This document shows, one piece after another, positions 20,358-58,932 of a stretch of 64,000 nt of DNA. The DNA lies in IMG/VR virus record IMGVR_UViG_3300021961_008157; one strand, given 5' to 3'. The position numbers and the translations under genes were made by a program. This DNA comes from a virus. Each line of letters opens with the position of its first letter. The stretch's first letter is position 1. The notes under the pieces were generated by a model that was given only the letters and a program-made list of their open reading frames with translations, was not told where the DNA came from and ran no database searches.

Positions 20358-20358
20358 T

Positions 20359-23081: not shown

Positions 23082-23404
23082 CCACGGTCCAAATGCTTGA
23101 TTTTATTGGGAATTCCGTTCCATTTTTCGTAATCGGGCAGCGGATCTTTGCGTTTGGTAATTACTGGCCATTTTTTTGCCAATTCGGCATTGATAGCAAT
23201 AAACGGACGCTGATCCTCGGGCAAGTCTTCTTCGGCATAAATGGCGTTAACAGGACACTCGGGCACACAAACTGCACAGTCAATGCATTCATCAGGATCA
23301 ATTGCCAAAAAGTTTGGTCCTTCAACAAAACAATCTACTGGGCATACATCTACGCAATCGGTGTGTTTGCATAGAATGCAATTGTCAGTTACCACATATG
23401 TCAT
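23078..23404 (-). CDS. fdxA: 7Fe ferredoxin (FdxA-like)
   Basis: [26 protein letters not shown]...[13 protein letters not shown]. Confidence 0.92.
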
Positions 23405-23405
23405 A

Positions 23406-31426: not shown

Positions 31427-34084
31427 TTACCATTCAAATAAAGTTTGGAATGTGTTTTCAGTGTTAGTGGCACTGGTCAAATCCCACTCAAGCACACCTA
31501 GCAAATTGTCGATCTTTTGATCAACCACAGTGGCTTCCATAGCACCGTCATCAAATGGCAGTTCCTTAAACCACTCGGGCAGTCGCTGTTCATCTGTGGG
31601 ATAACCAATACTGGTCCAGCCCAGTGGATTAGCTTTTAGCTTGCACACAATAGTTTTCATACCATCAACAATTTGCATTGAGTAGTTATCGCCATTCATA
31701 CGCCGTAAATTATTCCAGTTAAGTGCTGCTCTAACGTGCCCGGGCATGTTGGCTTTGCCTAACCGTTCTTCCTCAGCGGCATACTTGGTTAAGTTATTAA
31801 CACGTTTGGGACTGCCCTTTTCCCAACCTGGGCGATCCATGAACGTATACTTAAATTCGCGTATGCGTTCAACAATCTTGTCCCGCGGATGACCACTCAG
31901 AGCCATGTTCAATATTTCTAACAAAAAATCTTGAATCACACGCGGAGTATCACTGCGTTTTAGATCCAAGCCCATGACCTTGGTCTTGCCAATAGCACCG
32001 TTAATGTCTAGGCGTTTGCCTTCAAGATCAACAATGTTTACAGCATAACGCTTTTTAGTAATAAACAAGCCACGATCGGCTACCAGTTCGCGACCAGCCC
32101 GGATCAACGCCCCCATTTCTCGCGGGCAGTGAAATGCTTGTTCCATAAATCCCGGGAAAGAGCCATTCACTTGTTCAGCAATAGAATCATACAGCGCAAT
32201 ACAAGTTTCTTTGTTCCATTCCATGTTTCCTGCTTCAACTTCTTTTTTCACTGCGTGCCAAGCAGTAAAGTAACAACTGTCAGTGTCGCCATAAATGATA
32301 GCGTCGCCCACATGGTCATATACACCAGTGATACACTCATTGATATATGCATCCATGTGCTTGGCAATTGAACGACCTGTTAGCGTAGTTGATTGTCCAA
32401 TCCGATGATCAAAGAAACGGCATCCAGGATTTAAAATAGCGCCATACAAACTGTTTAGATTAATTTTCTTAACCAATTGACGCTTGTCCCAAAACGCTTC
32501 TTCTTTTTTATCCTTTGCATCGCGTTTCTTGGCTTGCATTTCCTTACGCTCCGCATACCAACGCTCCAACAATCCGGGAATGATACCTTTCTTTTCATAT
32601 GTAAGAATAGTGCCATTGGCCGACAATATCCATGGACGATTCGAATCAAATATAATGGACCAAATTTCCGCAGCCGAGTACACATCCGACTCGCCAGACT
32701 GCCAGTCAACGGTGATTTCAGTGCCGCGTTGTTGTTCCATAACAGCAGTATACTCTAAACTGCCAAACAATCCCTCCCACGCCGCTGCAAAACTTTGTCC
32801 ACTGTTGATTTTATCTTTGATGTATCTATCAGTCATGATAGGACGCAGTTGCCCCACAACTGTTTCGGGTCCCATGTTCATAGCACGAATCGCTGACGGA
32901 TATAGACTGTTAATGTCCACTGATCCAATCCACTCGCTCATGCCCTTCTTGGGATAAGCCACATATGCACCGGCCGCTTGTGTGTTGTCATCAGTTAGGC
33001 GCTGCTGCCGATTGGGCACAACCATGCCCCGCTCGTGTGCTTCGTTAATAATAGCCTGCTCAGTCACAGCCACAGCACCCATGGTGGTCTGTAGCAACAC
33101 AGTATTAGCATGTGCCAGCGTGTTGGCTAGATCTAGAAACTGTAGTTTTTTGTCTAACTTGTTTAGTAGTGCTGTGTCTTGGCGGTTGTATGCAATAAAC
33201 GTTTTGAAGTGCTGGTTATACAGTTGATCCAGCGTACCTTCAAACTGTGTCTTACGCTCGCCCAACTCGTATTCAGCAATAGCATCTAGACTATAACTGT
33301 GCCGTTCTTCATAAGTGTATTTCCGATACAACTGCATATAGTCCATATGCACACGACCAATCAAGTCATAAGTTTCTTGCTCGGCACCAAAGCGTTCAAA
33401 CTTCCGTGGCTTGGGAAACTGCCCCCAAAGGCAAAACTTTCGTGTATCGTCCTTGCTGAGTATGCGTGTGATGCGATTGATAGTGTAAGGAATATCATAG
33501 CCTTCGGAGTTCCACCCACTAAGCACATCTGCATCGTCGATCAGGTCCAGGAACATTTTGAGCATGTCCGCTTCGTTGTCAAACAAAAATGTGTTATCAA
33601 ACTCGGCAACCAACTCTTGTGCTGTTTCCATGCTAATGGAACGCGGAGGCACAGCCAGCGTTACCAACTGATCCAGCCAATCCAGGTATACCGAAATCGC
33701 TGTTATGGCGTTGAATGGATCTTCGGTGGGCGAAAAGCCGCGAACCTTGTCAAAGTCTACTTCAATGTCGAAAAATGCTGTTTGTAGTACAGGGGAGTCG
33801 GCATCTTTATAGTTTTCTTCAAAGCAGCGAAAGATAGGATTGATATCGCTTTCATACAACTGCTTGCTGCTGTGCATTCGAATTTCTTTGCGAAATTCTT
33901 TGTTGTTCCGAGTGGAGAATCTGCTGACTGGTGTGCCGTAGATGCTTTGAAACTTACCCCGCGGGTCATCGTAATAAAAAACAAAACTAGCAGGATATTC
34001 TTTATAGACACGATGACCATTTACACGCTCTACAACGTGAATGCGATCAGAATCTCTATCAAATAGTGCATCTACATATGACAT
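31427..34084 (-). CDS. family B DNA polymerase
   Basis: exonuclease FDIE, GWNSEGYD, YNRQD; polymerase DINSLYPS, KINLNSLYG, YGDTDS, KKRY. Confidence 0.97.
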   Translation of the reverse strand: MSYVDALFDRDSDRIHVVERVNGHRVYKEYPASFVFYYDDPRGKFQSIYGTPVSRFSTRNNKEFRKEIRMHSSKQLYESDINPIFRCFEENYKDADSPVLQTAFFDIEVDFDKVRGFSPTEDPFNAITAISVYLDWLDQLVTLAVPPRSISMETAQELVAEFDNTFLFDNEADMLKMFLDLIDDADVLSGWNSEGYDIPYTINRITRILSKDDTRKFCLWGQFPKPRKFERFGAEQETYDLIGRVHMDYMQLYRKYTYEERHSYSLDAIAEYELGERKTQFEGTLDQLYNQHFKTFIAYNRQDTALLNKLDKKLQFLDLANTLAHANTVLLQTTMGAVAVTEQAIINEAHERGMVVPNRQQRLTDDNTQAAGAYVAYPKKGMSEWIGSVDINSLYPSAIRAMNMGPETVVGQLRPIMTDRYIKDKINSGQSFAAAWEGLFGSLEYTAVMEQQRGTEITVDWQSGESDVYSAAEIWSIIFDSNRPWILSANGTILTYEKKGIIPGLLERWYAERKEMQAKKRDAKDKKEEAFWDKRQLVKKINLNSLYGAILNPGCRFFDHRIGQSTTLTGRSIAKHMDAYINECITGVYDHVGDAIIYGDTDSCYFTAWHAVKKEVEAGNMEWNKETCIALYDSIAEQVNGSFPGFMEQAFHCPREMGALIRAGRELVADRGLFITKKRYAVNIVDLEGKRLDINGAIGKTKVMGLDLKRSDTPRVIQDFLLEILNMALSGHPRDKIVERIREFKYTFMDRPGWEKGSPKRVNNLTKYAAEEERLGKANMPGHVRAALNWNNLRRMNGDNYSMQIVDGMKTIVCKLKANPLGWTSIGYPTDEQRLPEWFKELPFDDGAMEATVVDQKIDNLLGVLEWDLTSATNTENTFQTLFEW

Positions 34085-35675: not shown

Positions 35676-37253
35676 TTACTTGCCGGCTACAGCCAGCGCA
35701 GCACCTTTGTTAAAACTGGGACTCCAGGGACTATTAGCCTGCTGTAATCCCTTACTCTTGCTCCATTCATAGCCAGCACGATGTCCCGAACAGTCTTTAG
35801 TGCACTCACTGCCCAAAAACTTTAGTTCATTCAGTTCATCTTTAAATCCGCTCAAGTTGCGCTCAACCTGACTGACCCAAGCACTAACATCACTGGAACC
35901 AATTTCTTCCACATCGCCTACAAATTCAGCAACACTATCAATGGCGTCACCTACAGCAAAAGGTCCATATTTTTGTAATAAGTCTGCTCGCTGCCTTAAG
36001 ATGCGGTTTGTAATAGCATTGGCCACAGGATTGTCTTCTTGGCCTTCGTCCACACCTTGCTGTTCATGCATATCGCGAAGCTCTTTATACTTGTCTAGTA
36101 AGTCTTTGTGTTTGCCAATCTCAGTTGATTTCAATCCATAGCGAGCAGTTTTAGCGTTGTCTAAATGATATTTGGCTCTCTTATGATCACCACGTTCATG
36201 GGCATCGATAGCCTTCTTCATAGTTGTGGCAAACGACGATTCCGCTACACCTTGTAGTTCTTTTTGTGTGGCGCCTGCTTTACGAGCAGCTTCAGCATCT
36301 TTAGAATCTTTTGTCTTGCGATATTTTGCTAATAATTCTTTGCGGGTGCCACCTTGACTTGGGGGATTGTAATCTGTGGCACTTGCGGTTTCATCCACAC
36401 CGTGTTCAGGCTTAACATCCACAACCTTAGCCATACTATGATGCTTTAGGAAACGCTCACGAGCAGAACGAGGACCAGTCATACCCCGAACACGGAACTT
36501 TTTAACCTTACCGTCTACTTCAGCAGTGACAATGTAATCGCGAACCATTTGAGCAGCGGCTTGTAGACCACTTGGATCTAATGCTGCTTCATCCATATCG
36601 TCACGGAACTCACCGCTGTCGTGCATACGTGCTTCTTCTTCGTCACTATCAGCATAGTCGTTAAAACTTACATCGCTAGAGTGAAAACTATGCTTACCGT
36701 GATTGTATAAGTTTACAATAACAAAACGCTTGTCTTGACCAAAATCATCAATAACGCCAGTTGCACCATTGAACTCAACGTTGCCAGTGATAACAACATC
36801 ATCACCAATGTTTAAGCCTTCTGCGGATTCCGCCACACCTTCTTTTACGCTGTCAATGATTGCTTTAATTTGCTTCAAGTGATTTAATTTACTTGCTAAT
36901 TGTTTAGCATTAGCATATTGGCTGCCAGATGTTGTGCGCTCATAGTCGCCATATCTTTTTAATTCATTTGCAACTTGTGTAATTTCAGCATCAATGTTAG
37001 GATGCTTTGCTGCCCAACCTTGTGCAATGCGCTGGTCTCTTTCGCTACTTTGCGCATCACCTTCACTCATACCCGAGCGTAGTTTCTTGCTAAACTCCTG
37101 AGCGCTTTTCTTTTCAGCTTTTTGGAAACGGCGTTCAATGTCTTTTAACCCGCGTCTGTGTTCGCGATCAATTTTCTTATCTTGTGCCGCAAGTTTATCT
37201 ATAACATCCTGAAAAGGATTGGCATTTTCATTGAAAAGGTCGTTTAAGTTCAT
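35676..37253 (-). CDS. modular polyprotein-like (probable internal head) protein
   Basis: about 8 unrelated 50-80 aa modules separated by GMSE, EGVAE, DMDE, HGVDE, QGVAE, QGVDE, ELNE. Confidence 0.7.
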   Translation of the reverse strand: MNLNDLFNENANPFQDVIDKLAAQDKKIDREHRRGLKDIERRFQKAEKKSAQEFSKKLRSGMSEGDAQSSERDQRIAQGWAAKHPNIDAEITQVANELKRYGDYERTTSGSQYANAKQLASKLNHLKQIKAIIDSVKEGVAESAEGLNIGDDVVITGNVEFNGATGVIDDFGQDKRFVIVNLYNHGKHSFHSSDVSFNDYADSDEEEARMHDSGEFRDDMDEAALDPSGLQAAAQMVRDYIVTAEVDGKVKKFRVRGMTGPRSARERFLKHHSMAKVVDVKPEHGVDETASATDYNPPSQGGTRKELLAKYRKTKDSKDAEAARKAGATQKELQGVAESSFATTMKKAIDAHERGDHKRAKYHLDNAKTARYGLKSTEIGKHKDLLDKYKELRDMHEQQGVDEGQEDNPVANAITNRILRQRADLLQKYGPFAVGDAIDSVAEFVGDVEEIGSSDVSAWVSQVERNLSGFKDELNELKFLGSECTKDCSGHRAGYEWSKSKGLQQANSPWSPSFNKGAALAVAGK

Positions 37254-37954
37254 TATGCTTCCTCTATGTAGTCAGCACTTTCGTCTTGTTTTTTGCTTCG
37301 TGCAAGATACATTTCCAATGCCATTTGTGCTTGGTCTAAATTTTTAAAGCGTGACTTTGTTGCACGACCATTGTGGCGCACTTCAAAGCCACATAGTTCA
37401 TCGCCGTGTATTTCACAGATACGACCATCTTCTAGCGTGATTGTTTTAACGGGCGACGACTCAGTGTATATAGGCTCTTCTACTGGAGCAGTAGGCATTT
37501 GGATCACTGGCTCCTCGTCAGTGGGATTTTCAGCCACAGCAGTAATTTGTTTGGCAATAATGCTACGGTCTTTATTATTTTTTTCTTTGATGTCGCTGTC
37601 GCTTTTAGTTTTTTCTTTTAAGTCTGTATCTTTCTTTTCAGTAGCAATACTGTCAAGATATTCAGCAAAAGATTTTTTAACTTTTTCTAGTTTGTCTTCA
37701 CTGGTGACTGCTTCTTCGATTTTTTCTTCGTCTTCTTCCTCAACGCTTTCATTGGCGCCAACCATGTAGCCTGCGCTGGGTGCTTTTTTATTTGGATCGC
37801 CGCCTAGCACTGGACCTTGCTTGGGCATGCTAAACAATGCTGGCATCTGTGGCACAGACTTTTGTTGACTGTTTAGGCCAGACTTAACAGAAGCAGGTGT
37901 AATGCTGCCTTCAATTACAGCCAGGCGTTGCATTATAGTGTAAATTTCATCCAT
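37253..37954 (-). CDS. acidic hypothetical (probable virion) protein
   Basis: 233 aa, multiple hydrophobic-X-E sites. Confidence 0.65.
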   Translation of the reverse strand: MDEIYTIMQRLAVIEGSITPASVKSGLNSQQKSVPQMPALFSMPKQGPVLGGDPNKKAPSAGYMVGANESVEEEDEEKIEEAVTSEDKLEKVKKSFAEYLDSIATEKKDTDLKEKTKSDSDIKEKNNKDRSIIAKQITAVAENPTDEEPVIQMPTAPVEEPIYTESSPVKTITLEDGRICEIHGDELCGFEVRHNGRATKSRFKNLDQAQMALEMYLARSKKQDESADYIEEA

Positions 37955-37956
37955 GA

Positions 37957-38397
37957 TTATTCCCTAACGTCCTTTAGAAAGCTACGCAATTGCCAAGCAT
38001 ACTTGTTTTGCTGACTCAGTCGTTCAGCAATAAAGTTGGCAATGTCTTGTTTGTTTTCAGCTTCAGCATCAGCAAAACAACTGTTCAATAGGTCTACCAT
38101 TGTTTGGCTGTCTGCCAGTAGTTCTTGGATCATTAGTTTGGCCCGGGGTATTTTTGTTTGGCCGGGTATTTGTGTCAATTCCTGAAAGCGTTCTAAGCTG
38201 CCAGGAGCGTATTCGTCTAAACTTCGTATATACTCAGCCAGTGGATCAATGGCTTCGTACGCATCTTGGTATATCTCTCCAAAAAAATTGTGTAACTGTG
38301 CAAAGTCGCTGCCTTCAACGTTCCAGTGAAAGTAGTGAACTTTTAGATAGTAGGAAAACTGGCTGGCCAGTAGTGTTTTTAGTTGATCAGTTAGCAC
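37957..38397 (-). CDS. dps: Dps/ferritin-like protein
   Basis: HYFHWNVEG, LHNFFGEIY, DPLAEYIR, WQLRS. Confidence 0.9.
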   Translation of the reverse strand: MLTDQLKTLLASQFSYYLKVHYFHWNVEGSDFAQLHNFFGEIYQDAYEAIDPLAEYIRSLDEYAPGSLERFQELTQIPGQTKIPRAKLMIQELLADSQTMVDLLNSCFADAEAENKQDIANFIAERLSQQNKYAWQLRSFLKDVRE

Positions 38398-38581
38398 GAC
38401 GTTTCTTTCCTTTTTTCATATAACTTGGAGTATTTGGAGTTGCATCCGTAGTGTATTTACCAGAAAAGAAGCTGCCGCCGTTTCTACTAACCATGCCCAG
38501 CGGAGCAGCTACTGGTGCTATACCACCTGCGCTAGTGGCGCCAGCTGACGCATTTTCGCGAATAAATTCGTGTGCTTTCAT
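38387..38581 (-). CDS. small basic protein with MKAHEFIRE leader
   Basis: N-terminus resembles the T4 capsid-targeting sequence. Confidence 0.6.
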   Translation of the reverse strand: MKAHEFIRENASAGATSAGGIAPVAAPLGMVSRNGGSFFSGKYTTDATPNTPSYMKKGKKRRAN

Positions 38582-38859
38582 TGTGTAATTTTTAAAATAT
38601 TGTTGGTAATGCGTCCGGGACCGTGGTCAACACGGAGGTTGTTTATGTGCAATGTTGCTACAGTGGGATCAAGCAATTGATAACTGATAACGTATTCCCC
38701 AGGTTCTGCTTCAATTTGGAGCATTTCTTCAAGATACTCGTTGGTCCACTTCCATGTGCGTTCAGCAAACAGTTCGTCATCAACATACACACGGTATACA
38801 GGCGGTGTGCCCGACCAAGTGCAATCAAGATCACACAGTACACGAACAAATTGTCTCAT
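38578..38859 (-). CDS. hypothetical protein
   Basis: 93 aa, TAAATA 4 nt upstream. Confidence 0.65.
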   Translation of the reverse strand: MRQFVRVLCDLDCTWSGTPPVYRVYVDDELFAERTWKWTNEYLEEMLQIEAEPGEYVISYQLLDPTVATLHINNLRVDHGPGRITNNILKITQ

Positions 38860-38877
38860 CCTGTATTTAGCTACAGT

Positions 38878-39066
38878 TTATTGAACTTGTTTGATAGAAC
38901 CTATGTGCCAGTCTTGTATATTATATTGGGTTTTTAAGATGTTCCGGGCTACAGTAATGTTTGGAGCCCAAGTTGTTACGTTAACCAAAGAAACATATCG
39001 TGGGTTTTCAATACGGATTTTAGCAATCCATTGCTTGGCTGACCCGACAATTTCTTTGGCTTTCAT
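38878..39066 (-). CDS. hypothetical protein
   Basis: 62 aa, TAAATA 7 nt upstream. Confidence 0.6.
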   Translation of the reverse strand: MKAKEIVGSAKQWIAKIRIENPRYVSLVNVTTWAPNITVARNILKTQYNIQDWHIGSIKQVQ

Positions 39067-39099
39067 TGTGTATTATTTACCAGATAAATGGTCATAATT

Positions 39100-40086
39100 C
39101 TATGCATTGTGCCCATATACTTGATAGTATCTTAGAATCATTGAATCTGCAAAAAATTTGTGTGATAGTAGTCCGGGATGGCTGCCGTCAGAACCCAGGT
39201 CAATATAATGATCATCGTGGTTCTGCCCAAAAATTCCATGTAATGGAATAAAATTCGGCATTCTTTCCATGTCTGACTCAATGCCTTTGATTAGTGTTGC
39301 TAAAATAAATTTAACTCCGATTTTATTACAAAAATTTATAACTTGGTAAATCGACGTTATAGATTTGTACTGTGTATGGTCAGACAAAAAGTATTCTTTA
39401 GTTATTAACTTTGCAGCCAGACTGCTTGCGTGACTTTTGTTTATATTTGTAAATTTCACCGACATCGACATATCGTCCCAAAATGAAAATCTTTTTGGAT
39501 TTGTAATCCCCCAAAATAAAATATCATTTTTTTCTAAGTCGGACCGCAAGATCTGATCGGCTGCCCACTCAATTGAACTCCCTGAGCGTGTCAGGAAAGA
39601 AACTGGAAGATTTAATTTTTCAGAAATTATATTTCCATAACGTTCGTGTTGTTGAACACCCATTCCGTCACTTATACTACATCCAGCAATCCAAATTTGC
39701 GGTTTTTCTGATCTTTTTGTGTCAGCAAGTTCCAGTGAATTCTTGGCTATCCCCTTTGCTTCATATCCATGAACAATTTTTGTTGGGTCCTTTGAGAATA
39801 CTGTTAGATACGATTCGATCCATTCTTTTTGCTTGCTAGATTGAAAGAGAGATTGATCAGACCATTTTTCAGGAGGAGCATATATTATTCTGTTTGCCTG
39901 TCTTAAAACAGATGCAAATTGTACCAAATTGTCAAGGTCGCCAATACTGATATAGTAAGTGCCCGGTGATAGTTCTTTGTAATTTTTGTTGGTAATTAAT
40001 ACTGCATCAAGATCATGTTTTTGTGCTGTTTCTGCCAAATACGGAGTTATATCGCCAACAAAAATTGTAATTTCTTCGGTGGCCAT
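39100..40086 (-). CDS. SGNH hydrolase-like protein
   Basis: AGCSIS, GSS, DGSHP (DxxH). Confidence 0.6.
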   Translation of the reverse strand: MATEEITIFVGDITPYLAETAQKHDLDAVLITNKNYKELSPGTYYISIGDLDNLVQFASVLRQANRIIYAPPEKWSDQSLFQSSKQKEWIESYLTVFSKDPTKIVHGYEAKGIAKNSLELADTKRSEKPQIWIAGCSISDGMGVQQHERYGNIISEKLNLPVSFLTRSGSSIEWAADQILRSDLEKNDILFWGITNPKRFSFWDDMSMSVKFTNINKSHASSLAAKLITKEYFLSDHTQYKSITSIYQVINFCNKIGVKFILATLIKGIESDMERMPNFIPLHGIFGQNHDDHYIDLGSDGSHPGLLSHKFFADSMILRYYQVYGHNA

Positions 40087-40092
40087 TGAATA

Positions 40093-40722
40093 CTACTTTG
40101 TAGATTTAGCGGCGTTCTTTTCCTTTACAGCACCCTCGGGCATGTAGGGAAAACTTACAGGATGTCGAAAACATGCTTTAGGATCGCCTTGCCCCGCTTC
40201 GATTAAAAATGCTGTTTCGGCGGGCACTTGTCCCATAGGGCAATAGCATGTGGCAATGCCATTTGGTCCCTTTTCGCAATTCCAGCTAAAACAGTTGCTG
40301 GCATTGTAGCCTTGCTTTAGATCGGCGCTGCATTTTTGAACCACAACTTTCATGTCTTTGGGCTTGTGGCTGAAGTTATTGGCTTCTTGTGGATACTCTA
40401 GCCGCGGCCAAAATGTGCTCCATACATGTTTGCTGTCAGTGGGCTCGCAACTGCCCTTCATGTTGCCCATGCTGGTGTCAGCAATATTGGGACCGTTTAA
40501 TATGGGGCAACGGCACACCACTTCAGGATATGAATTGCCAGCTGAGTTAGTAATCATTCGCTGCGTACCATCGGCATTCATTACAGGCTTACAAGTACTG
40601 GCTGCACAAAGCGCAAATTCGCCTTGGCAAATGGTCAATCCCGGAGGTGCTTTGGGTTTTGATTGTGCAAATGCTGCACTAGCCAGTACTAAACTGGTTA
40701 AAAATATTACTAGTTGTTTCAT
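40093..40722 (-). CDS. secreted Cys-rich protein
   Basis: signal peptide (AAFA) and many Cys. Confidence 0.7.
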   Translation of the reverse strand: MKQLVIFLTSLVLASAAFAQSKPKAPPGLTICQGEFALCAASTCKPVMNADGTQRMITNSAGNSYPEVVCRCPILNGPNIADTSMGNMKGSCEPTDSKHVWSTFWPRLEYPQEANNFSHKPKDMKVVVQKCSADLKQGYNASNCFSWNCEKGPNGIATCYCPMGQVPAETAFLIEAGQGDPKACFRHPVSFPYMPEGAVKEKNAAKSTK

Positions 40723-40723
40723 G

Positions 40724-41611
40724 TTAATCCGCCTTAATTTGTACGTTACTTATACTCATTGATGTGGTGCTACCACACATTGCACCCCATGAGCATGAAC
40801 CATTCCACCAGCCCTGGGGTTGCCCGGGACTCCAACCGCCCTGCCAAATACTAGCATGAATCCAATAACCATTGTTCATGCTGGTTTTAAGATCGTTCAT
40901 GTTAATAGAACCGCTGCCACTATATCCAGACCCAACAGTTGAATCATACACTACCACGCTGTTGCTCCCTTGAGTGTATGTGACTTTATATGTGGGAGTG
41001 TCACCATAGGTAAAGTCAGCAGTCATTTGTACTGGTTTGGTAATGTCAATAATGCCGGCTAACTTGTGCGATCCCCCTGATGGATTGTCGCTCATTTTAC
41101 TAGAATCATAGCAGCTGGTGTTCAATGCTTTGTCAGTATAGCTAAGTTCAAATCGTTGTGGTGCATTTATGCCACCGTTGCCTGTGTGAATTGTAGTTTG
41201 AATTACTGCGTTGGCGTTGGATTCAAGCATGTCAATTTCACGGCAATTTTGATCAGTCAAGTTGCCCCCAGCATCACAATAGTCTTTGCCCGAGTTTGAA
41301 CGGGTGGGATTGGTTGGATTGCTTACCATATAAAAAGTATGATTTACAAAATTACTAGTGGCTCGGCTGAGATCAACAGTGGCTGTAATTTGTGTGATGT
41401 TTTTGTATGATTGCTTGCTTACCACTCGTCCCGCGGCACACGAAGACGTGCCAAAAGACACAGCGCCCGGTGTATTCACATCAGGATTGGTGTCGCAACT
41501 TTTATAGTCTACTACAAATGTTGGTGTGTATGTGGTTTGTGCTGTGCTTGTTACTGTTGGTTTACATCCGACTAATAATGATAAAAATACCAGTGTTACT
41601 AATTGTTTCAT
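40724..41611 (-). CDS. lipoprotein with GH16/GH7-like catalytic motif
   Basis: lipobox LVGC; CREIDMLE (ExDxxE); YCDA. Confidence 0.6.
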   Translation of the reverse strand: MKQLVTLVFLSLLVGCKPTVTSTAQTTYTPTFVVDYKSCDTNPDVNTPGAVSFGTSSCAAGRVVSKQSYKNITQITATVDLSRATSNFVNHTFYMVSNPTNPTRSNSGKDYCDAGGNLTDQNCREIDMLESNANAVIQTTIHTGNGGINAPQRFELSYTDKALNTSCYDSSKMSDNPSGGSHKLAGIIDITKPVQMTADFTYGDTPTYKVTYTQGSNSVVVYDSTVGSGYSGSGSINMNDLKTSMNNGYWIHASIWQGGWSPGQPQGWWNGSCSWGAMCGSTTSMSISNVQIKAD

Positions 41612-41650
41612 GTTACTTCCTTCAATTTTATTTAACAATATAGACGGTCC

Positions 41651-41935
41651 TTACCACCATTTCATTGCCACACCAAATCCAAATACATTTACACAAGCAA
41701 AGTATGCTGTCAGGAGCATGGGCCACGGAATGCCCCGGCGGTAATACGCATACACTCCGGCGATAGAACCAATGAAAAATCCGGGATACACAATACGCAT
41801 GTCAGGATTGTCAGCAGTTAATGCCAGCGTTAAACTGGCTCCTACAGTTGTTATAAAACTAACCAGCTCGTAGTAAAAGGCAGTGCGATCGATTTTATAG
41901 CTTTGGATCCAAAAGGCTATTATTTTTTGTTTCAT
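41651..41935 (-). CDS. small multi-pass membrane protein
   Basis: three hydrophobic segments. Confidence 0.7.
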   Translation of the reverse strand: MKQKIIAFWIQSYKIDRTAFYYELVSFITTVGASLTLALTADNPDMRIVYPGFFIGSIAGVYAYYRRGIPWPMLLTAYFACVNVFGFGVAMKWW

Positions 41936-41954
41936 CGTTTGTTGCGTGTTTTGC

Positions 41955-42053
41955 CTATAAAATTCTGATCATTACCATTACTGTTATTACTGCCACTGCC
42001 GCTATTAGTATTAGATCCGACACCGTTTCCTTGATCTTGTTCTTGTCCATCAT
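41955..42053 (-). CDS. 32-aa membrane peptide (not in ORF track)
   Basis: MMDKNKIKETVSDLILIAAVAVITVMVMIRIL*; ATGA coupling; flanked by 27-bp imperfect repeats. Confidence 0.45.
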   Translation of the reverse strand: MMDKNKIKETVSDLILIAAVAVITVMVMIRIL

Positions 42054-42352
42054 CGCTTGCTGCGTGTTTCGCCCATGGACATTCCCCATGTGCCATCTTC
42101 ATCTACGCCGCCTGCTCGTGCGTCCTGCTGCGACATTTTAGCTGTTTCTGCATTCCGTGCAGCGTCGGCAGCTTGTGATTGCCAGCTACTTTCATCATCA
42201 ACGTTCCCAGTTTCTTCTTCCTCAATGGGCACACAGTTGTTGACTCGCACGCCACCTTTCATTTTGGTTTTGGGATTGCCAATCTTTTTACCTGACCAGC
42301 ATTTGGGATCTAGCCGTGTTTTTTCTTCAATTATGATGTCTTGGATTTTCAT
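42050..42352 (-). CDS. small modular probable virion protein
   Basis: MKIQDIIIE leader, CWSG...NNCVP module, GGVDE. Confidence 0.65.
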   Translation of the reverse strand: MKIQDIIIEEKTRLDPKCWSGKKIGNPKTKMKGGVRVNNCVPIEEEETGNVDDESSWQSQAADAARNAETAKMSQQDARAGGVDEDGTWGMSMGETRSKR

Positions 42353-42364
42353 ATGTACCTTTGT

Positions 42365-44359
42365 TTATGTTCGGCTGGTATAGTCCTTGAAGTTTTCCGC
42401 ACGATCTTGTAACCCCCGCATACCCGGATTGATCATTCGGGTTACTGCGGCTACGTCATTGTAGTTATCTACATTGGGCTGCACACGATGTTTCCAGTAC
42501 CACACAGCCACTTGTGCTGCTACTGCTGGATCTTCAACTAATTCTGGTCGTTGTTCAAGTGGTAATCCCAGTGCTTGTCCAGCTACTTTGTAGTTGTGTC
42601 GCCCGGTCAATTGTATAAACCCACGACCTTTGTAGCGTTCACCATCACCAGCAAACTTATTGCCTAGTGCCCGTGCTTTCTTTGGTGCGTGTTTAGGATC
42701 GTATTTCCGAAAGTCTAACTTACCGCCAATTTCTTTTAGTCGTTTAAAGTCCAGTGTTTCGTGGGCGCATTGTGCCATAAACGCTGCTAGTTCAGTGCCG
42801 GCTAGACCAGCACGTTGAGCAACAGATTTTAACACATTTTCAAGTGGACTGTTTGTTATATTTTTTATTTGCGCCGGTGCTTTGGGTTGTGCCTGCTTGG
42901 CTGTTTGTGCTTTTTGCACGCCTTGGGCAATGGAACTTTTTGCAACTGGTGCTTGGATTTGTTTTGCTGGTTGCTGTGGTGCAGGAGCAGTTGCTACTGG
43001 AGCGGTGCTGCTTGAACTCCATTTATTAAACGCATCTTTTGCAGCCATACCACCAGCGCCACCTGCACCAATAGCGCCAGCAATAGCCAAGTTTCCTAGA
43101 GTGTCCTTCCAACCTTCTCCGAGTGGCAATGATTGTTTTAAGAACTGCTCACCTTCACTGGTAACATACCAATATCCGTCATCGTTGATAGCATAACCAT
43201 TGCTATCTAAACTGTCTAACACGTTGTCATATTCTGCGGTGCGTGACTCATCTTCGATAAAATCCATACCTAATTTTGCTGCTGTATAGATAGCGTGTAA
43301 TACTAATATCTTGCCGTAACCCTTACCTTTGTATTCGGGATTGACTTCAGCAATGCTGCGTCCACTGTTTGCGTCATATTGATAACCGCCTGCAGGTTTG
43401 CCGTTAACTGTCATTTCAGTAGCAAACTTATTACGACCTTTACGAACTGAAATAGCAACTTGCTCTACTGACTCCGCCACACCTTGCTTCTTTGCCCAGT
43501 CGTCTGGAGAAACTTTATTTTTTTCAATAAATCGATCGTGTAGTTTGCTCGGTGTTATTTTATGATTTTTGGCCACAGTTTGCATCATGTGATCTATGGC
43601 GTCATAACTGTGGGGATCTTTAAGATCTTTTTCTAAATCTTCAACGCTGTCTTCGTTGGCTTTCTTTTTCCCACCTTTCATATTGGCGCACCAGTGATAC
43701 ATTTTGCCTTTTTCGCCTGAGTACTTTTTGGCCTTAGCCCGCAAGTCAGTTACTGAACCAGCGCAACTTGCGCCCGCTGCTTTTACACGACCTGGGCGAC
43801 TTTTACCTTTTACTTTACCGTCAGCAAAGTTTTCCGCCACACCTTGTTCCCAGATATTTTTACCCGGTTTGTGTTTGTCCCAGAATGCAGCACCGGCATC
43901 TGTTTGCTGTCCACTGCGGCGTATTCTATATCCCTTACTCTTAACATAATCATACATTGTGGCGGCAATGCCTTGACCACGGAAGCGTTCATCAACTTCT
44001 AAGTCTTGTGGATTGAGAACCATGCCTTGACTGTCATAATCTATTGTAAATAATACATGTCCTAATTCTCTACTACCTGCTGATGCCTTGACAAATACTT
44101 CTCCATCATCATCATCTTTTTGAAGTAAAATGTTTATACCGCCGTAGTTTTCTCTGTTCTCTGCCACACCAGCGGTGCTGCCCAGTCCTGGTAGTTTTAC
44201 ACCAATAACATCTTGCACCAAGTCCCAACCCTGTTTGTATTTTTTCGCAGCGATTAAACGTTTGAGTTCGGCTTTTTGCTCAGCCGTGGCCAATGTGAAA
44301 AACTTAAAAGTTTCCATTGCGCCTATGTTACGCTTGTAACTCAACTCATTTAATCGCAT
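42365..44359 (-). CDS. polyprotein: two GNAT-like domains, small modules and C-terminal GH19 lysozyme/chitinase
   Basis: VDERFRGQGIA, VNPEYKGKGYG; AFMAQCAHET, YKGRGFIQLTGRHNY, TRMINPG; GVAE linkers. Confidence 0.8.
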   Translation of the reverse strand: MRLNELSYKRNIGAMETFKFFTLATAEQKAELKRLIAAKKYKQGWDLVQDVIGVKLPGLGSTAGVAENRENYGGINILLQKDDDDGEVFVKASAGSRELGHVLFTIDYDSQGMVLNPQDLEVDERFRGQGIAATMYDYVKSKGYRIRRSGQQTDAGAAFWDKHKPGKNIWEQGVAENFADGKVKGKSRPGRVKAAGASCAGSVTDLRAKAKKYSGEKGKMYHWCANMKGGKKKANEDSVEDLEKDLKDPHSYDAIDHMMQTVAKNHKITPSKLHDRFIEKNKVSPDDWAKKQGVAESVEQVAISVRKGRNKFATEMTVNGKPAGGYQYDANSGRSIAEVNPEYKGKGYGKILVLHAIYTAAKLGMDFIEDESRTAEYDNVLDSLDSNGYAINDDGYWYVTSEGEQFLKQSLPLGEGWKDTLGNLAIAGAIGAGGAGGMAAKDAFNKWSSSSTAPVATAPAPQQPAKQIQAPVAKSSIAQGVQKAQTAKQAQPKAPAQIKNITNSPLENVLKSVAQRAGLAGTELAAFMAQCAHETLDFKRLKEIGGKLDFRKYDPKHAPKKARALGNKFAGDGERYKGRGFIQLTGRHNYKVAGQALGLPLEQRPELVEDPAVAAQVAVWYWKHRVQPNVDNYNDVAAVTRMINPGMRGLQDRAENFKDYTSRT

Positions 44360-45516: not shown

Positions 45517-45950
45517 TATATTATTCTCCATCCGTTATTGTATATCATAGCCAGTGCTCCATTGTTGACTGCCAGCGTTGCACCACCAGCATCGTTGTCT
45601 ATGGTTCCCACTAGTACTATGTTGTTGACGTTGCAATTGCCGCTTTCGTCTTTAATTGTAATTTGTTTACCGGCCACTGCGCTGGTTGGTAGGGTAACAG
45701 TACAGACACCCGCATAGTTTATGCCAACATAGTAGTCATCAGTAGCCAGTGTATAAGAAGATGTAGTCACCGTGGTTGTATTATATACCGGCGCACCAGT
45801 GTTGTATATAAGCGTACCACCGGGTGTTACGCCGTCACCAATACGTAGCCGAGGGTCGGCTTCACTGTACCAAATTTTTCCTAAATCTCCTACATACGTG
45901 GCTGCATCACCTTTGGTTTTGAAGCTACTCCATATTTTGTAAAAGCTCAT
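45516..45950 (-). CDS. tail fibre/appendage-like protein
   Basis: LRIGDGVTPGG, VTLPTS, IKDESG, terminal WRII. Confidence 0.55.
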   Translation of the reverse strand: MSFYKIWSSFKTKGDAATYVGDLGKIWYSEADPRLRIGDGVTPGGTLIYNTGAPVYNTTTVTTSSYTLATDDYYVGINYAGVCTVTLPTSAVAGKQITIKDESGNCNVNNIVLVGTIDNDAGGATLAVNNGALAMIYNNGWRII

Positions 45951-45964: not shown

Positions 45965-48900
45965 TTATCTCATCTCGGGTACTACTTCAATCTCGGCACT
46001 TTCTGGTGGAGGATTGTATCGTCCATTTCGAATGGCTGCCAACAACCATTCTTGGGCTTTGCGGTTAGCATCCCCTTGATTGTTGCCAATGCCACTGAGT
46101 CTGTGTATTTCTTGGCCGTTGACTTTAATTATCCATTGTCCAGTAAACTCACCGCCTGGTTGCTGTGTGCTTGCTGCGGGTTGTGGCTCTTGTTGCTGTG
46201 CTTGAGCAGCACGTTGGCGCTGTAGGTCTACAGTAGAACCAGGTAATGGACCACGGCGTAAACCAATTGAACCACGGGTCATGCCACTATCTCTAACCAT
46301 TTCGTCTCTATACCTATTACCAATTTCTATAGCCATTTCGTCGTCGGCAGCATAGTATGTGCGATAAACTTGGCCAGTTTCGCGACTAAACATTTCATAC
46401 TTTACGCTTTGATTAGAACCAGTGGGTGTTATTGACATTGGACGATCACGCCTAAATTCTGAATCGCTGCCACCGGCTGGTTGCCCCAATGTCTGATTAT
46501 CATCACGTTGAGCTAACCAAACTTGATCTGGATGTTCTTGTCTCCATTGTCTTAACACAATATTGGCATCATCGATGTTAGCCGCCATGAATCGGTAATA
46601 TACACTGGTTCTATCACTTTCAGGTGTAATAACATAGTTACCGTCAGGGTTACTTGGACGACCATTTACTGTTGGTCCCGACCGTTGCCCAACTGCTTGT
46701 GGTTCACCTACTGTTGCTCGAACTGGTTCTTTATTGTACGGTGCAACGGGTTTGGCTTCTAAGTTTGCAGCACTTGCCCAATCTGGATAATTCTCTGGTT
46801 GTGTTGCTATTCTAATCGCTTCTTCTTTGGATGACGCAACAACTTTAATGCTGGCCATATAACCTGGGCGGCTAACTTCCCACCAAAACTTTTCATCACC
46901 AGTATCGCCCTTTTTAACCTTACGCTCTAGTTGTGCTTGTTTGATAAAACTCTTTAAATCTTCTTTAGGCATTTCACCTGCTACATACTTGGCAAAGTAT
47001 TCCAATGTGTCTTTGCCCGAGCCATTTGGTGACAGCACTTTGTATAACTTCTTCAAGTATTCTTGACGATACTTTTTAGGATCCATAGCAGCATCAGTAG
47101 CCACAACAAAGCGCAGTAGTGTATTTTCTAACTTGTCTACATTTGCCGCATACTCACCCAACCAATCGCCCCCGGGACTGCGGAATTCAATATAGTTGCC
47201 CTTTGTATTGATGCTTGTGTATTTCTGTGTTTCGCCAGAGTGAATGATTTTAGTTGCCATCGCTTCTAAATTATCTTTCATTTTCTTTAGCAAAGCAGCC
47301 GCATCTTCGGGACGCTGATTTATACGATCGCGCACAATCCTCATAGCACTTTTAGTATATGTATTGGCTGAACGACCAAATTGATCCAGTACATATTCAT
47401 CGCCTAACAGCAATGCCAGTTTAACATAGTCAAGTTTATCAGTTGACAAGTCGGGTATGCTAACATTCATATGTAAGCCGGTGGAATCGTTTGTGTACGC
47501 ACCAACTCTGCCTGCCCACTTTACAACTTTTTCCAAGTCATCGAGCATTTCATCTAGTGGTAGCGGAGGACTAATAAACTCAAGACCAGATTCGCCACTA
47601 TTGTCGGGATCTAAACTGCTGTCAGGTTCAATAACATAGTCTGTGGCGTTCCGCTTGGCACCGTGATAACTTGATGAGTACTGAACTTTGCGACCAATAG
47701 CATCCTCAAAATCCGACGCAATCGATCCTATATCTGTTTCGGGTTCAGGGTTGTAATAATGTGGCCAAGCGATATCGTGGCTTCCGGAAATATCACTCAT
47801 GTTGGGATAAACAGCGTCCAGGAATTCTCGCTCTTCAGTATTGTTAAACGCTTCTTCCCTGTAATCATCATATGCTTCTTGATGAAAACTGTTGGTATTT
47901 TCTATTGAATACTCAACAAAGTTCTTCCAGTCTTCTTTAGTCAGTTCATGATCTTCGGGTAATTCTAATACTTCTCTAACATCATCGTCGCTGGCATTTT
48001 CTTTAACCCAATCCCAGACACGTTCTTCCTCATCCTCTTCCCAGTTTTCATCTATACGCTCACCTAACCATTCAAAAAATTCATCTTGTAAATTTTCTAT
48101 TAGGCGATCAACTTCACGGCGGGAGTTGTAGTCATTATCATGAAAGAATTCTCTAATGTCAGCCCAACTACGGCTGCGTTGATCTGAATCATAATCAGGT
48201 TCTATGTCGCCGTCACCGTAACTATCTGTATCAACACCCGGAACGATCATTTCAAATTCCATGCCAGCACGAGCGTCAATGTTTCGTGCTAAATCGCGCA
48301 AAGAACTAATGCTCATGTTGATTTCAAACAGTGCTTCTTCGGTTAATGATTCATTTACATTATAAGTAGGATCAGTTTTGACTTTCTTCATGCCCGCCGG
48401 TTGTGCAGGATCACGAGGATCAATGTCTGTTATATCCAGACCTGTAGCTTCTAAATCTTTAATAAACTTGTGTTCTGTATCTTCGTCGCCGAAACTGATG
48501 ATAGAACTGGGAGGTCCCTTGCCAAAATCGTGTTTACCAAGGCCCTTTAAGTTGCTGATGTGTTGTCCCAATTTGTACCAGTCGTATACATCGCTTACAT
48601 CTACACGCAAAGTACCCTTTGGCATAGTGGGTTTGGATTCTGGCCCAGGTGGATGATCAGGACTGTAATCTTCAGCAGTCCGGCCAGGTAGTCGCCCTGT
48701 TTCTTTAAACTCCCGCAAAGCATTGGCCAGCCCTTTCATCAACAGTTCAGGATGTCCTTGGCTGTCAGTGTTTAAATTTAATTTGTTGGCTTCTTTACCA
48801 GTGGCACCGGGTTTAACATCTTTGGTCAGGGCCATAGACCAGCGCGGATCACGGGCCTGCTTTTTTGTTGGAATGTACCCCGAGCTTTCGTTGGCGTTGG

Positions 48901-55932: not shown

Positions 55933-55982
55933 TGTTTCTTTCAGTGTTGTTTACAACATTATACCGGTTTTTAAGTTTATAT

Positions 55983-58308: not shown

Positions 58309-58932
58309 TTATGCCTCAAATACTTCAAGAGCATGTTTATAATGTGCCATACGCTCATCTAGTCCAATGGTGCCACCATTGATGCGCCGTGTTAGTGTAG
58401 TAATATCATTGTCATCGGCGTAGCGATTTAACTTGTTGGTTTTCCAAAACCAACAGGCACTGGCTACTGCGCCTTCGGGTGTTTCGAGATAATCCGGAAC
58501 ATCATCTATATTCATTCCTGTGCTGTCAGCAAATGCTTGATAGTTGTTGCGTCCAGTTAGTTGTATAAGTCCCCGTCCACAATAGCGATAGCCGTCGCCT
58601 GACGCTTCGTCGCCGTTCCCCATTCGATTAGCATATACACGATTGGCAATGGCTTCTTGTTTGTTGGGCTTGTTGGCATATTCTTCTGCTATGCTGTCAT
58701 CGGGAAAATATTTGCCAAATACTTTTCTTAAACTGGTAGCACGATAGTTTAGGTTTTCTTTGAGTGCAGTAAATCCGGCACTTTCGTGGGCAGTTTGGGC
58801 AAGGAATGCGGCAACACGACCCGGCGTGTTAATTTCGTATTCTGGTAGCACCTTATTCAATGCAGTAGTCCACTCAGAAATGTTGGAATTTCTGGGAATA
58901 ATCTCCTGCAATTGTTCTTCAGTGATTTGCAT
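58309..58932 (-). CDS. GH19 endolysin
   Basis: AAFLAQTAHES, ENLNY, GRGLIQLTGRNNY, TRRINGG. Confidence 0.92.
   Translation of the reverse strand: MQITEEQLQEIIPRNSNISEWTTALNKVLPEYEINTPGRVAAFLAQTAHESAGFTALKENLNYRATSLRKVFGKYFPDDSIAEEYANKPNKQEAIANRVYANRMGNGDEASGDGYRYCGRGLIQLTGRNNYQAFADSTGMNIDDVPDYLETPEGAVASACWFWKTNKLNRYADDNDITTLTRRINGGTIGLDERMAHYKHALEVFEA

Follow-up and report, generated by a model that had tools for sequence, protein, structure and literature searches.

Why would a phage string unrelated small domains into single proteins on a recurring, Glu-terminated joint? The question is raised by two minus-strand ORFs of 525 and 664 aa in a 64,000-nt stretch of DNA (IMG/VR record IMGVR_UViG_3300021961_008157; hereafter the window) from an uncultured T4-superfamily jumbo phage. 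Its family-B DNA polymerase (PolB) is 50% identical to that of Sinorhizobium phage Phosso, 47% identical to that of Atu_ph07 and 85–86% identical to those of G001 and G002, two IMG/VR contigs of 320–332 kb with genes for a gp23-type capsid protein and a gp21-type protease. A first-pass annotation had described both ORFs and proposed that seven GV[AD]E joints within them act as prohead-protease sites and as in-frame recombination joints. The ORFs and all seven joints are present and in frame as it described (Table 1).

Table 1. Coordinates of the focal ORFs, their joints and other features of the window
Feature	Position	Strand	Basis or remark
Candidate cargo polyprotein 1, 525 aa	35676..37253	-	ORF list
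Leader of polyprotein 1, T4-CTS-like, MNLNDLFNE	37227..37253	-	most homologues begin with the same leader type
Polyprotein 1 joint 1, E-G-V-A-E, GAAGGTGTGGCGGAA	36828..36842	-	between helical domain and KOW barrel
Polyprotein 1 joint 2, H-G-V-D-E	36390..36404	-	at start of low-pLDDT gap 286-299
Polyprotein 1 joint 3, Q-G-V-A-E	36240..36254	-	residues 335-338
Polyprotein 1 joint 4, Q-G-V-D-E	36045..36059	-	matches low-pLDDT gap 400-406
Candidate cargo polyprotein 2, 664 aa	42365..44359	-	ORF list; Pfam; PHROGs
Polyprotein 2 joint 1, A-G-V-A-E	44159..44173	-	motif scan
Polyprotein 2 joint 2, Q-G-V-A-E, exact CAAGGTGTGGCGGAA	43832..43846	-	motif scan
Polyprotein 2 joint 3, Q-G-V-A-E	43472..43486	-	motif scan
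ENFADGK module, 60 aa, very basic, two Cys	43652..43831	-	most widespread cassette
GH19 muramidase/chitinase-type domain, C-terminal in polyprotein 2	42368..42844	-	Pfam PF00182, 1.1e-12
Acidic protein, 233 aa, second leader type, MDEIYTIMQRLAVIE followed by G	37253..37954	-	one-base overlap with polyprotein 1 start
64-aa ORF, leader MKAHEFIRE followed by N	38387..38581	-	window's nearest match to T4 CTS
100-aa ORF, leader MKIQDIIIE followed by E, eighth GVDE	42050..42352	-	ORF list
Giant multi-domain protein, 1440 aa, same cluster	45965..50287	-	Pfam; phrog_36119 (PHROGs)
PolB	31427..34084	-	context; places phage in T4 superfamily
Rz-like spanin	57806-58306		adjoins stand-alone GH19 endolysin
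GH19 endolysin, stand-alone	58309..58932	-	PHROGs; context

Modular architecture of the two proteins

Polyprotein 1 runs from its leader through a helical module, a KOW/SH3-like barrel, an alpha/beta module and three helical modules to a Cys-bearing tail. Its AlphaFold model contains a helical domain, the barrel, an alpha/beta domain and two helical domains, with the tail modelled at low confidence and low-pLDDT gaps at residues 214-233, 286-299 and 400-406; Foldseek returned weak matches to KOW domains. Three of the four joints sit in gaps that separate confident domains. The remaining one, joint 3, is modelled within a helix (residues 330-353), so this module boundary is less clear, a point against the reading of the protein as cleaved cargo. 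At least 468 homologues were found, each covering only 10-63% of the protein.

Polyprotein 2 consists of an N-terminal piece, a GNAT domain, the basic ENFADGK module, a helical module, a GNAT-like module, a Gly-rich hydrophobic segment with a low-complexity spacer and, last, a GH19 domain; Pfam recognized two GNAT regions and the GH19. Parts of residues 1-480 are common to at least 1895 homologues. The ENFADGK module is carried by at least 594 IMG/VR loci, mostly at 75-92% identity; it matched no Pfam family except for a spurious hit to OAR, and its matches in Atlas were viral hypothetical proteins only. The GH19 domain shares 35% identity with a stand-alone GH19 endolysin of the phage and is therefore a second copy; as that endolysin comes with a spanin, the copy in polyprotein 2 does not serve as lysis enzyme. 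Neither focal ORF contains a peptidase domain.

Codon choice and DNA sequence at the joints

G-V-[AD]-E occurs four times in polyprotein 1 and three times in polyprotein 2, and just once elsewhere in the window's gene set of 78 ORFs and ~20,000 residues, as a GVDE in the 100-aa ORF. The codon counts that had been reported for the seven joints are correct: GGT in 7/7, GTG in 6/7 and GCG in 4/5, against window backgrounds of 0.36, 0.23 and 0.09 (binomial p ~7.5e-4, 7.5e-4 and 2.9e-4). Outside the linkers both ORFs follow background codon usage, and codon-pair context offers no explanation, as GCG is used in 5 of 93 Ala codons before Glu and GTG in 13 of 81 Val codons after Gly. The bias claimed by the first-pass annotation is thus left unexplained by either test. 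The eighth GVDE is written in ordinary codons (GGC GTA GAT GAA), which counts against the cargo reading. When up to three mismatches are allowed, CAAGGTGTGGCGGAA has six matches in the window, all on the coding strand and in frame, where 1.5 are expected; none of 100 shuffles reached six. Likeness between joints is limited to ~15 nt, and the flanking sequences are unrelated.

Relatives show the same preference. At 42 distinct joint sites, GGT is used in 34/42, GTG in 26/36 and GCG in 24/38 cases, compared with 0.39, 0.20 and 0.08 in the background. The exact 12-mer GGTGTGGCGGAA encodes 25 of 38 GVAE sites; related loci totalling 1.2 Mb contain it 21 times, always in frame, where 0.05 copies are expected (an excess of ~400-fold). 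The joint DNA, CAA GGT GTG GCG GAA, is kept at its silent positions across phages of 35-50% G+C.

Cassettes, leaders and head machinery in relatives

The modules are cassettes from a very large pool common to uncultured relatives, in which they occur in many orders. They recur in hundreds to thousands of metagenomic proteins and in at least 36 arrangements, with cassettes of both focal ORFs mixed in single proteins; syntenic slots are occupied by versions of 203, 335 and 664 aa or by unrelated genes. The first-pass annotation had named a fixed module order and background codon usage as findings that would speak against it; both were tested, and neither was found.

Cassette junctions are almost always aliphatic-x-Glu. 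Among 70 distinct junctions upstream of ENFADGK, P1 is Glu in all 70 and P3 is V, I, M or L in 55, next to unrelated upstream sequences, and across 238 homologues a Glu stands before the KOW cassette in 90/114 cases and before ENFADGK in 100/100. The claim that each module ends in hydrophobic-X-E holds for most boundaries and fails at some. Most junctions in relatives are x-x-E sequences other than GV[AD]E, so shuffling can do without GV[AD]E DNA; G001 and G002, the nearest relatives, are among those with other joints, which counts against the cargo reading. A module swap exactly at the motif is seen in one pair of loci: L011 and L019 share 87% DNA identity as far as the joint, and their sequences beyond it are unrelated. 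That this was the one DNA-level swap found there also weighs against the cargo reading. In a broader breakpoint comparison, on an underpowered sample, 2 of 16 ends lay near a joint.

Both focal ORFs belong to a hypervariable cluster (~35.6-50.3 kb), flanked by ClpA/DnaJ genes and PolB, and sit among genes with leaders such as MKAHEFIRE, MNLNDLFNE and MKIQDIIIE that resemble the T4 capsid targeting sequence (CTS), MKTYQEFIAE (PMC8442874), whose processing is governed by residues 8 and 10 (PMC9026906). Cassettes are seen both after a joint and directly behind a leader: some polyprotein 1 homologues (e.g. P0019 and P0022) have the leader fused straight to the KOW module, and in homologue P0115 the module of the 100-aa ORF comes after MNLNDLFTE. 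A second leader class, MD[ML]KxLLxKL...E, found in the 233-aa acidic protein (39-40% identical to its G001/G002 orthologues), starts many homologues. The leader of polyprotein 2, MRLNELSYKRNIGAME, is atypical, again a point against the cargo reading. The 1440-aa protein combines nucleotidyltransferase-like and Amidoligase_2 domains with an HExxH motif; its orthologues in G001 and G002, of 1864 and 1625 aa, differ by module gaps and insertions, and its KPTMPKGT...YDWYKLG cassette recurs in relatives' polyproteins (L013 and L029).

Peptidase_S77 and Gp23 are present in all five large relatives tested, two of which are those with 85-86% identical PolB, and the relatives' capsid protein has an L-x-E aligned to the column of T4 gp23 FLTE (Glu65), the T4 cleavage position. 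The proposed fit to T4-type prohead-protease sites is upheld in that the linkers are aliphatic-x-Glu, the leaders are T4-CTS-like and close relatives encode Peptidase_S77. Counting against the cargo reading, the T4 late promoter TATAAATA has zero occurrences in the window, and neither the window nor the ~30 kb of flanking contig yielded a gene for a head protease, capsid or portal; we therefore infer the protease from relatives.

A capsid-cargo reading, its rivals and its closest relatives

We think it likely, judging from sequence, that the focal ORFs encode capsid-cargo polyproteins of this phage that are cut at their joints by a head protease. Because the joint fits the head-protease rule and its silent positions are conserved, the modules probably enter the capsid as cargo and are then separated and injected; exchange between phages probably takes place at the joints. 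The T4-CTS-type leader would bring the precursor into the prohead scaffolding core, where a gp21/Peptidase_S77-type protease would cut after Glu, at the leader and at every aliphatic-x-Glu joint, of which GV[AD]E is the commonest form in the focal ORFs. The predicted products are small proteins, among them two GNAT acetyltransferases, the very basic 60-aa protein, the KOW-like barrel, helical modules and the GH19 wall hydrolase, which, on the model of T4 IPI-III and Alt, would stay in the head and pass into the host along with the DNA. That any module counters host defences is pure conjecture.

The same proteins might instead be uncleaved 'polyvalent' multi-domain effectors that act as single chains, packaged or not, with GV[AD]E as flexible linkers that came along with the cassettes. 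Phage effectors built from several shuffled domains have been described as a class, some of whose members are transferred uncut (PMC5512222), and the helix modelled over residues 335-338 agrees with this. We nevertheless judge it rather improbable: a plain linker has no need of an aliphatic-x-Glu pattern with an invariant Glu, beside unrelated upstream sequence, and the same Glu ends the N-terminal leader, while the relatives' capsid protein has the motif at T4's known cleavage position. Very improbable, in our estimate, is cleavage by some other protease, not necessarily in the capsid, the candidates being the HExxH domain of the 1440-aa protein, the phage's Peptidase_S8 (subtilase; 20359-23022 in the window) and a host enzyme. 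Embedded metallopeptidases have been proposed to release polyvalent proteins (PMC5512222), and the missing head protease would suit this account; yet gp21-type enzymes follow just this rule, cutting after Glu with an aliphatic residue at P3 (PMC9026906), CTS-like leaders indicate the prohead, S77 occurs in every large relative tested and the focal ORFs have no peptidase of their own.

The conserved DNA of the joint is a separate matter. The reason we favour, tentatively, is repeated cassette exchange in or through the joint sequence; other causes are possible, and the idea of a recombination joint is plausible but unproven. Selection on mRNA or translation could also fix silent sites of CAAGGTGTGGCGGAA, for example through a pause at rare codons (GTG, GCG) or one at an anti-Shine-Dalgarno-like AAGGTG that gives the upstream module time to fold; exchange would then rely on longer shared stretches, among them the 180-nt ENFADGK cassette. 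GTG and GCG are indeed rare codons in the window, 15 nt is a short stretch for recombination by homology, shuffling occurs at many junctions that lack GV[AD]E, and the ENFADGK cassette DNA is 82% identical over 176 nt between the window and L039. We regard this explanation as unlikely but worth keeping in mind, as the same codons are kept in loci of differing codon rarity whose G+C content ranges from 35 to 50%, CAA, GGT and GAA, which are common codons, and a following GGC are fixed too, and homology between L011 and L019 breaks exactly at the joint. Chance or codon usage might be invoked for just seven sites in the window; with p values of 1e-3 to 1e-17, complete frame and strand bias and the 12-mer excess in relatives, that origin is already refuted by the codon, shuffle, codon-pair and 12-mer tests, and we give it practically no weight.

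The best reading of the cargo polyproteins is as an extension of T4 internal proteins and their CTS and of the published polyvalent proteins, and the label 'undescribed system' was too strong. As with T4 IPI, IPII, IPIII and Alt, there is a ~10-residue N-terminal leader ending in Glu, a predicted gp21-type cut after Glu in aliphatic-x-Glu, and a diverse set of unrelated payloads in hypervariable loci, and gp21-type protease and gp23-type capsid protein are encoded, here by the relatives. T4 Ip1-3 are injected anti-restriction proteins (PMC12373910). Unlike the T4 proteins, which are single, small and cut once, those predicted here chain up to seven cassettes with a predicted cut at every joint, share a recurrent GV[AD]E joint with conserved DNA and include enzymes (GNAT, GH19). 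Polyvalent proteins of phages and conjugative elements (Iyer, Burroughs, Anand, de Souza and Aravind, 2017; PMC5512222) likewise hold several unrelated, extensively shuffled effector-type domains per polypeptide. They, too, feature HExxH peptidase motifs and lysozyme-type domains, have been compared to RNA-virus polyproteins and are predicted to travel with the DNA. Their release was proposed to occur through embedded peptidase domains, with no common linker or leader described (PMC5512222), whereas the focal ORFs lack a peptidase and have a uniform joint of the trans-protease type and a T4-type leader.

Glu-directed cuts by a gp21-related protease, predicted here, are known for many head and ejection proteins of the giant phages phiKZ, 201phi2-1 and SPN3US (PMC9026906), and multiple cleavage sites per protein are known there as well (PMC9026906; PMC10052503; PMC5694885). 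Those phages form a different lineage, in which processing removes propeptides and does not split up chains of unrelated cassettes. The phiKZ-type motif has small residues at P3, in contrast to the aliphatic P3 of the window's joints. In hyperplastic regions of T4-type phages, too, short repeated DNA motifs lie on either side of non-essential units that can be swapped, as in PeSLs, intergenic promoter-terminator units that exchange whole genes (2010; PMC2839356), and polymorphic IP loci (Repoila et al., 1994, as cited in PMC3012670). Unlike in PeSLs, the motif here is 15-18 nt long, lies in frame within an ORF and, in its putative recombination role, would exchange protein modules. Integron gene cassettes, too, form arrays in which a short sequence that keeps recurring delimits exchangeable units; the first-pass term 'integron-like' is an analogy only, because the 15-nt joint comes without a recombinase or att-like structure (no integrase among ~45 window ORFs scanned, no attC-like structure) and the units here are in-frame protein modules, not genes.

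The cluster's 64-aa ORF has orthologues in G001 and G002 that are 64-66% identical, and the portion after its leader is similar to the mature N-terminus of the relatives' capsid protein.

Leaders, joints and a predicted cutting rule

Comparative evidence supports well, and in our view makes probable, a reading in which the two focal ORFs encode capsid-targeted polyproteins whose modules ('cassettes') would be released by a protease at GV[AD]E linkers ('joints'). The accompanying proposal of the first-pass annotation, that the joints also act as recombination points, is plausible at a tentative level. Homologues of both ORFs nearly all start with a nine- or ten-residue leader, M-x-(L/I/F)-x-(D/E/Q)-(L/I/F)-(F/I/V)-x-E, a pattern judged on 120 homologues and present at the start of most. 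The T4 capsid targeting sequence (CTS) is MKTYQEFIAE (PMC8442874); its first ten residues are enough for packaging, residues 8 and 10 control processing, and the T4 prohead protease gp21 and its giant-phage relatives cleave after Glu (PMC9026906). CTS-like leaders of about ten residues ending in Glu open polyprotein 1 and two small ORFs in the window (see table). An atypical leader, MRLNELSYKRNIGAME, opens polyprotein 2; that of a 233-aa ORF is of a second type, likewise common in homologues.

Coordinates of the features discussed (window positions unless a locus or residues are named)
Feature	Position	Strand	Length (aa)	Content
Polyprotein 1	35676-37253	-	525	leader MNLNDLFNE
Polyprotein 1, confident model units	residues 13-139; 148-200; 235-283; 300-399; 409-482			helical; five-stranded barrel; alpha/beta; helical; helical
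Polyprotein 1, low-confidence gaps	residues 214-233; 286-299; 400-406
Polyprotein 2	42365-44359	-	664	two GNAT regions and a GH19 domain (Pfam)
Small leader-bearing ORF	38387-38581	-	64	leader MKAHEFIRE
Small leader-bearing ORF	42050-42352		100	leader MKIQDIIIE
Giant neighbour	45965-50287	-	1440	NTP_transf_2 and Amidoligase_2 (Pfam)
Two ORFs between giant neighbour and polyprotein 2	44371-45950	-	144 and 386	weak tail-fibre-type PHROG matches
PolB	31427-34084			DNA polymerase
ClpA/ClpB-type protein and DnaJ homologue, adjoining	53653-56780	-	759 (ClpA/ClpB-type)	double AAA+ protein
Subtilase	20359-23022	-	887	G5 and Peptidase_S8 domains
Modification gene group	15457-24113	-		QueE-like radical SAM, QueD-like, GTP cyclohydrolase; methyltransferase and glycosyltransferase among them
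Part of receptor/porin gene group	6993-8849	-		continued on the contig left of the window (L090)
Occupant of polyprotein 1 slot in G001/G002	L007:13037-15634; L008:13236-15554		772-865	starts MIVDQLF

The KOW cassette, the SH3-like barrel of polyprotein 1, is joined straight to the leader in some homologues (…LFE/NAEGLN…) and follows a joint in the window (…GVAE/SAEGLN…); leader ends and joint ends can therefore take each other's place. Before the ENFADGK cassette, a 60-aa module of polyprotein 2, we find 70 distinct junctions at which P1 is Glu without exception (70/70) and P3 is Val, Ile, Met or Leu in 55/70, and the modules upstream are unrelated. Across 238 homologous proteins, a Glu stands directly before the KOW cassette 90 times out of 114 (P3 aliphatic in 84) and before every one of 100 ENFADGK cassettes (P3 aliphatic in 91). 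The aliphatic-x-Glu motif at leaders and joints marks predicted cleavage sites.

As searches of the window and of ~30 kb of adjoining contig revealed no head protease, capsid or portal gene, the head protease step rests on relatives; contig walking for the protease yielded auxiliary and replication genes only. All five of the large IMG/VR relatives that carry these cassettes, including the contigs G001 and G002, have a Peptidase_S77 above the Pfam cut-off, and its gene adjoins those for a scaffold protein and a Gp23-type capsid protein. When the relatives' capsid proteins are aligned with T4 gp23, Y-L-A/S-E falls in the column of F-L-T-E ending at Glu65, the gp21 cleavage site. The 64-aa ORF reads NASAGATSAGGIAPV...GMVSR after its leader, resembling the mature N-terminus of the major capsid protein of the relatives (…YLKE/NASAGSTSSGNIATLNRV…). 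It is 64-66% identical in G001 and G002, and its sequence might mimic the cleavage site and N-arm of that capsid protein. A second phage-encoded protease, the subtilase, lies in the window.

Cassettes and their arrangement among relatives

The AlphaFold model of polyprotein 1 (mean pLDDT 77) has five confident units. Three of the four joints lie in gaps between domains, the joint at residues 335-338 is modelled within a helix, and the Cys-bearing tail has low model confidence. A Foldseek search with the model gave nothing below E 1e-3; the barrel resembles KOW/SH3-like domains at weak E-values only. Pfam returned nothing credible on the small cassettes, only an OAR match on a basic stretch. 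The ENFADGK cassette is very basic and without a known family (an Atlas search gave viral hypothetical clusters only). We count it in at least 594 IMG/VR loci, most often at the end of the chain or as a mini-protein directly behind a leader. By analogy with the basic internal proteins of T4, our guess is that it may be DNA-associated. The GH19 domain of polyprotein 2 is preceded by a glycine-rich hydrophobic segment and is 35% identical to a stand-alone GH19 endolysin that lies beside an Rz-like spanin in the phage; from these features, the polyprotein domain is more likely to be a virion-borne wall hydrolase used at entry.

We found at least 468 homologues of polyprotein 1, each covering just 10-63% of it, and searches of phage records (tblastn) and IMG/VR gave no whole-length relative. 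For residues 1-480 of polyprotein 2, homologues number at least 1,895 out of 8,000 scored candidates; partner domains in them include cytidine deaminase, NUDIX, nucleotidyltransferase, ParB, SET and superoxide dismutase. The two commonest cassettes had no match in 50,697 phage records, a set in which the main cassettes are thus absent from every cultured phage. The expectation that module order would vary between relatives was borne out: among the 238 homologues, the cassettes of the window stand in at least 36 different orders, with inversions (2e-2b-2c vs 2b-2e-2c for cassettes of polyprotein 2, 1c-1b vs 1b-1c for those of polyprotein 1) and with cassettes of both ORFs mixed.

G001 and G002 are syntenic with the window from ClpA/DnaJ to PolB, but carry different cargo there. 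The polyprotein 2 slot encodes 203 aa in G001 (leader, GNAT, ENFADGK) and 335 aa in G002 (leader, GNAT, GNAT, ENFADGK), against 664 aa in the window. In the polyprotein 1 slot, both have an unrelated protein with a similar leader start, which also contains a glycine-zipper-like hydrophobic segment, a LysM-like stretch and long Pro/Ala/Thr-rich spacers. In length, the giant neighbour varies from 1440 aa in the window to 1625 aa in G002 and 1864 aa in G001, with module gaps, and the 144-aa and 386-aa ORFs beside it are missing from the syntenic region of G001 and G002. Two further large contigs, G003 and G004, have still other leader-bearing genes between ClpA/DnaJ and PolB.

Conservation of the joint DNA

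The placement of the seven G-V-[A/D]-E sites, in frame in the two focal ORFs, proved exact, as did their codon counts: Gly is GGT in 7/7, Val GTG in 6/7 and Ala GCG in 4/5, where the background is 0.36, 0.23 and 0.09, respectively. The chance of such counts is ~7.5e-4 for GGT in 7/7, ~7.5e-4 for GTG in at least 6/7 and ~2.9e-4 for GCG in at least 4/5. The motif is in no other ORF of the 78-gene, ~20,000-residue window set besides one GVDE in the 100-aa ORF, where ordinary codons are used. When up to three mismatches to CAAGGTGTGGCGGAA are allowed, all six matches are in frame on the coding strand; 1.5 were expected, and no shuffle reached six.

The same preference is seen in 80 IMG/VR loci, which hold 42 distinct G-[VI]-[AD]-E sites. 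Gly is GGT in 34/42, Val GTG in 26/36 and Ala GCG in 24/38 (background 0.39, 0.20 and 0.08; p from 3e-8 to 1e-17). Gln before the joint is always CAA, and Gly after it is GGC in 14/16, as counted from the peptide tally. The 12-mer GGTGTGGCGGAA has exact matches at 21 separate places within 1.2 Mb of related loci, vs 0.05 expected, and the frame bias looked for in relatives is complete, with the 12-mer in frame in a long ORF at 21/21 places. It encodes 25/38 GVAE sites, in loci whose G+C runs from 35 to 50%. The two closest relatives have joints of other x-x-E sequence.

Silent-site conservation of the joint DNA is real and lineage-wide. Codon usage and codon-pair bias, which could produce such uniformity, are rejected by the background and by neighbouring-codon counts: in the window, Ala before Glu is GCG in 5/93 and Val after Gly is GTG in 13/81, and the two focal ORFs use ordinary codons outside the joints. 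Recent duplication of a linker with its flank is ruled out by unrelated flanks; the DNA likeness between joints ends at the 15-mer edges, and the joints are therefore not remnants of recent segment duplications. Either repeated exchange at the joint or an mRNA signal may account for the conservation. Exchange predicts breakpoints at the motif, and one pair of related loci (L011 and L019) has DNA that is 87% identical for ~130 nt up to a joint and unrelated directly after it. An all-against-all breakpoint test of the loci gave too few alignments and is underpowered, with 2/16 internal ends lying 9 nt or less from a joint (1.6% expected).

In a dual-use version, which we consider possible though on the unlikely side, Q-G-V-A-E would be a head-protease site and its DNA, CAAGGTGTGGCGGAA (GGC often next), an in-frame exchange point, together making a combinatorial payload system. 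Jumbo phages would then exchange effector cassettes one by one within capsid-loaded polyproteins, and this protein-level payload system would be common to thousands of uncultured phages.

If the reading as jointed, capsid-targeted polyproteins is true, many uncultured giant phages would fill their heads with strings of small enzymes and binding proteins, which the head protease would dice into a cocktail delivered at infection. This would be a far larger and more modular version of the three internal proteins of T4, which are specific anti-restriction factors. The large cassette pool (at least 1,895 proteins among 8,000 candidates) would serve as a ready list of candidates for early-acting effectors and for counter-defence proteins, and the leader and joint rules would let such cargo be spotted from sequence alone. 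A silent-site-conserved coding joint with exchange breakpoints would, in turn, be a new example of in-frame module shuffling by phages.

Known systems and the genome setting

The closest system is that of the T4 internal proteins and Alt, with its CTS, gp21 cutting, hypervariable loci and injected anti-restriction proteins (PMC3012670, PMC9026906, PMC12373910). Among published concepts, the polyvalent protein comes nearest: shuffled effector domains in one chain that is delivered along with the DNA, with embedded peptidases as the proposed means of release (Iyer et al. 2017, PMC5512222). Like polyvalent proteins, the focal ORFs combine at least two unrelated effector-type domains per polypeptide (two GNAT and GH19; a KOW-like barrel and other folds), with extensive domain rearrangement among homologues. 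Unlike them, neither focal ORF contains a peptidase family (Pfam, PHROGs), and the 1440-aa neighbour has an HExxH motif only, without a Pfam peptidase match. What sets the present case apart from both is that many cassettes are chained behind a T4-type leader, that a uniform joint fits a protease acting in trans, and that the joint DNA is conserved; a full-text literature search found no paper describing such chained, leader-bearing, uniformly jointed cassettes. The description 'integron-like' holds as an analogy only: an integrase was looked for among ~45 window ORFs (Pfam or PHROGs) and attI/attC-type sites were sought, neither being found, and the joint is a 15-nt coding sequence without a conserved or palindromic flank.

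PolB has 50% identity with its counterpart in Sinorhizobium phage Phosso, 47% with the one in Agrobacterium phage Atu_ph07 and ~43% with those of the PBECO4 group, all T4-superfamily jumbo phages. It shares 85-86% identity with G001 and G002 (320 and 332 kb), and 74%, 66% and 57% with three further IMG/VR contigs; given its identity to the 320- and 332-kb contigs, the window is part of an uncultured jumbo phage. GenBank phages gave no near-identical DNA, and the window's proteins recur on metagenome contigs from ENA and Logan, the longest of 143 kb. The minus strand carries nearly all genes. The T4 late-promoter octamer TATAAATA has 0 matches in the 64-kb window vs 4.7 expected. CTAAATA lies 5-20 nt upstream of the 1440-aa gene, a 93-aa gene and the endolysin gene, without overall enrichment in the window (14 vs 12.3 expected).

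A TonB-dependent receptor, a porin, a hybrid histidine kinase/response regulator, a periplasmic binding protein and a D-Ala-D-Ala carboxypeptidase-type gene lie in the window and on the contig to its left. They are either unusual auxiliary genes or a sign of a chimeric assembly; the receptor/porin arrangement is common to two independent assemblies. The presence of QueE-like, QueD-like and GTP cyclohydrolase genes points to possible modification of the DNA with 7-deazaguanine. The ClpA/ClpB-type and DnaJ pair keeps its position in G003 and G004.
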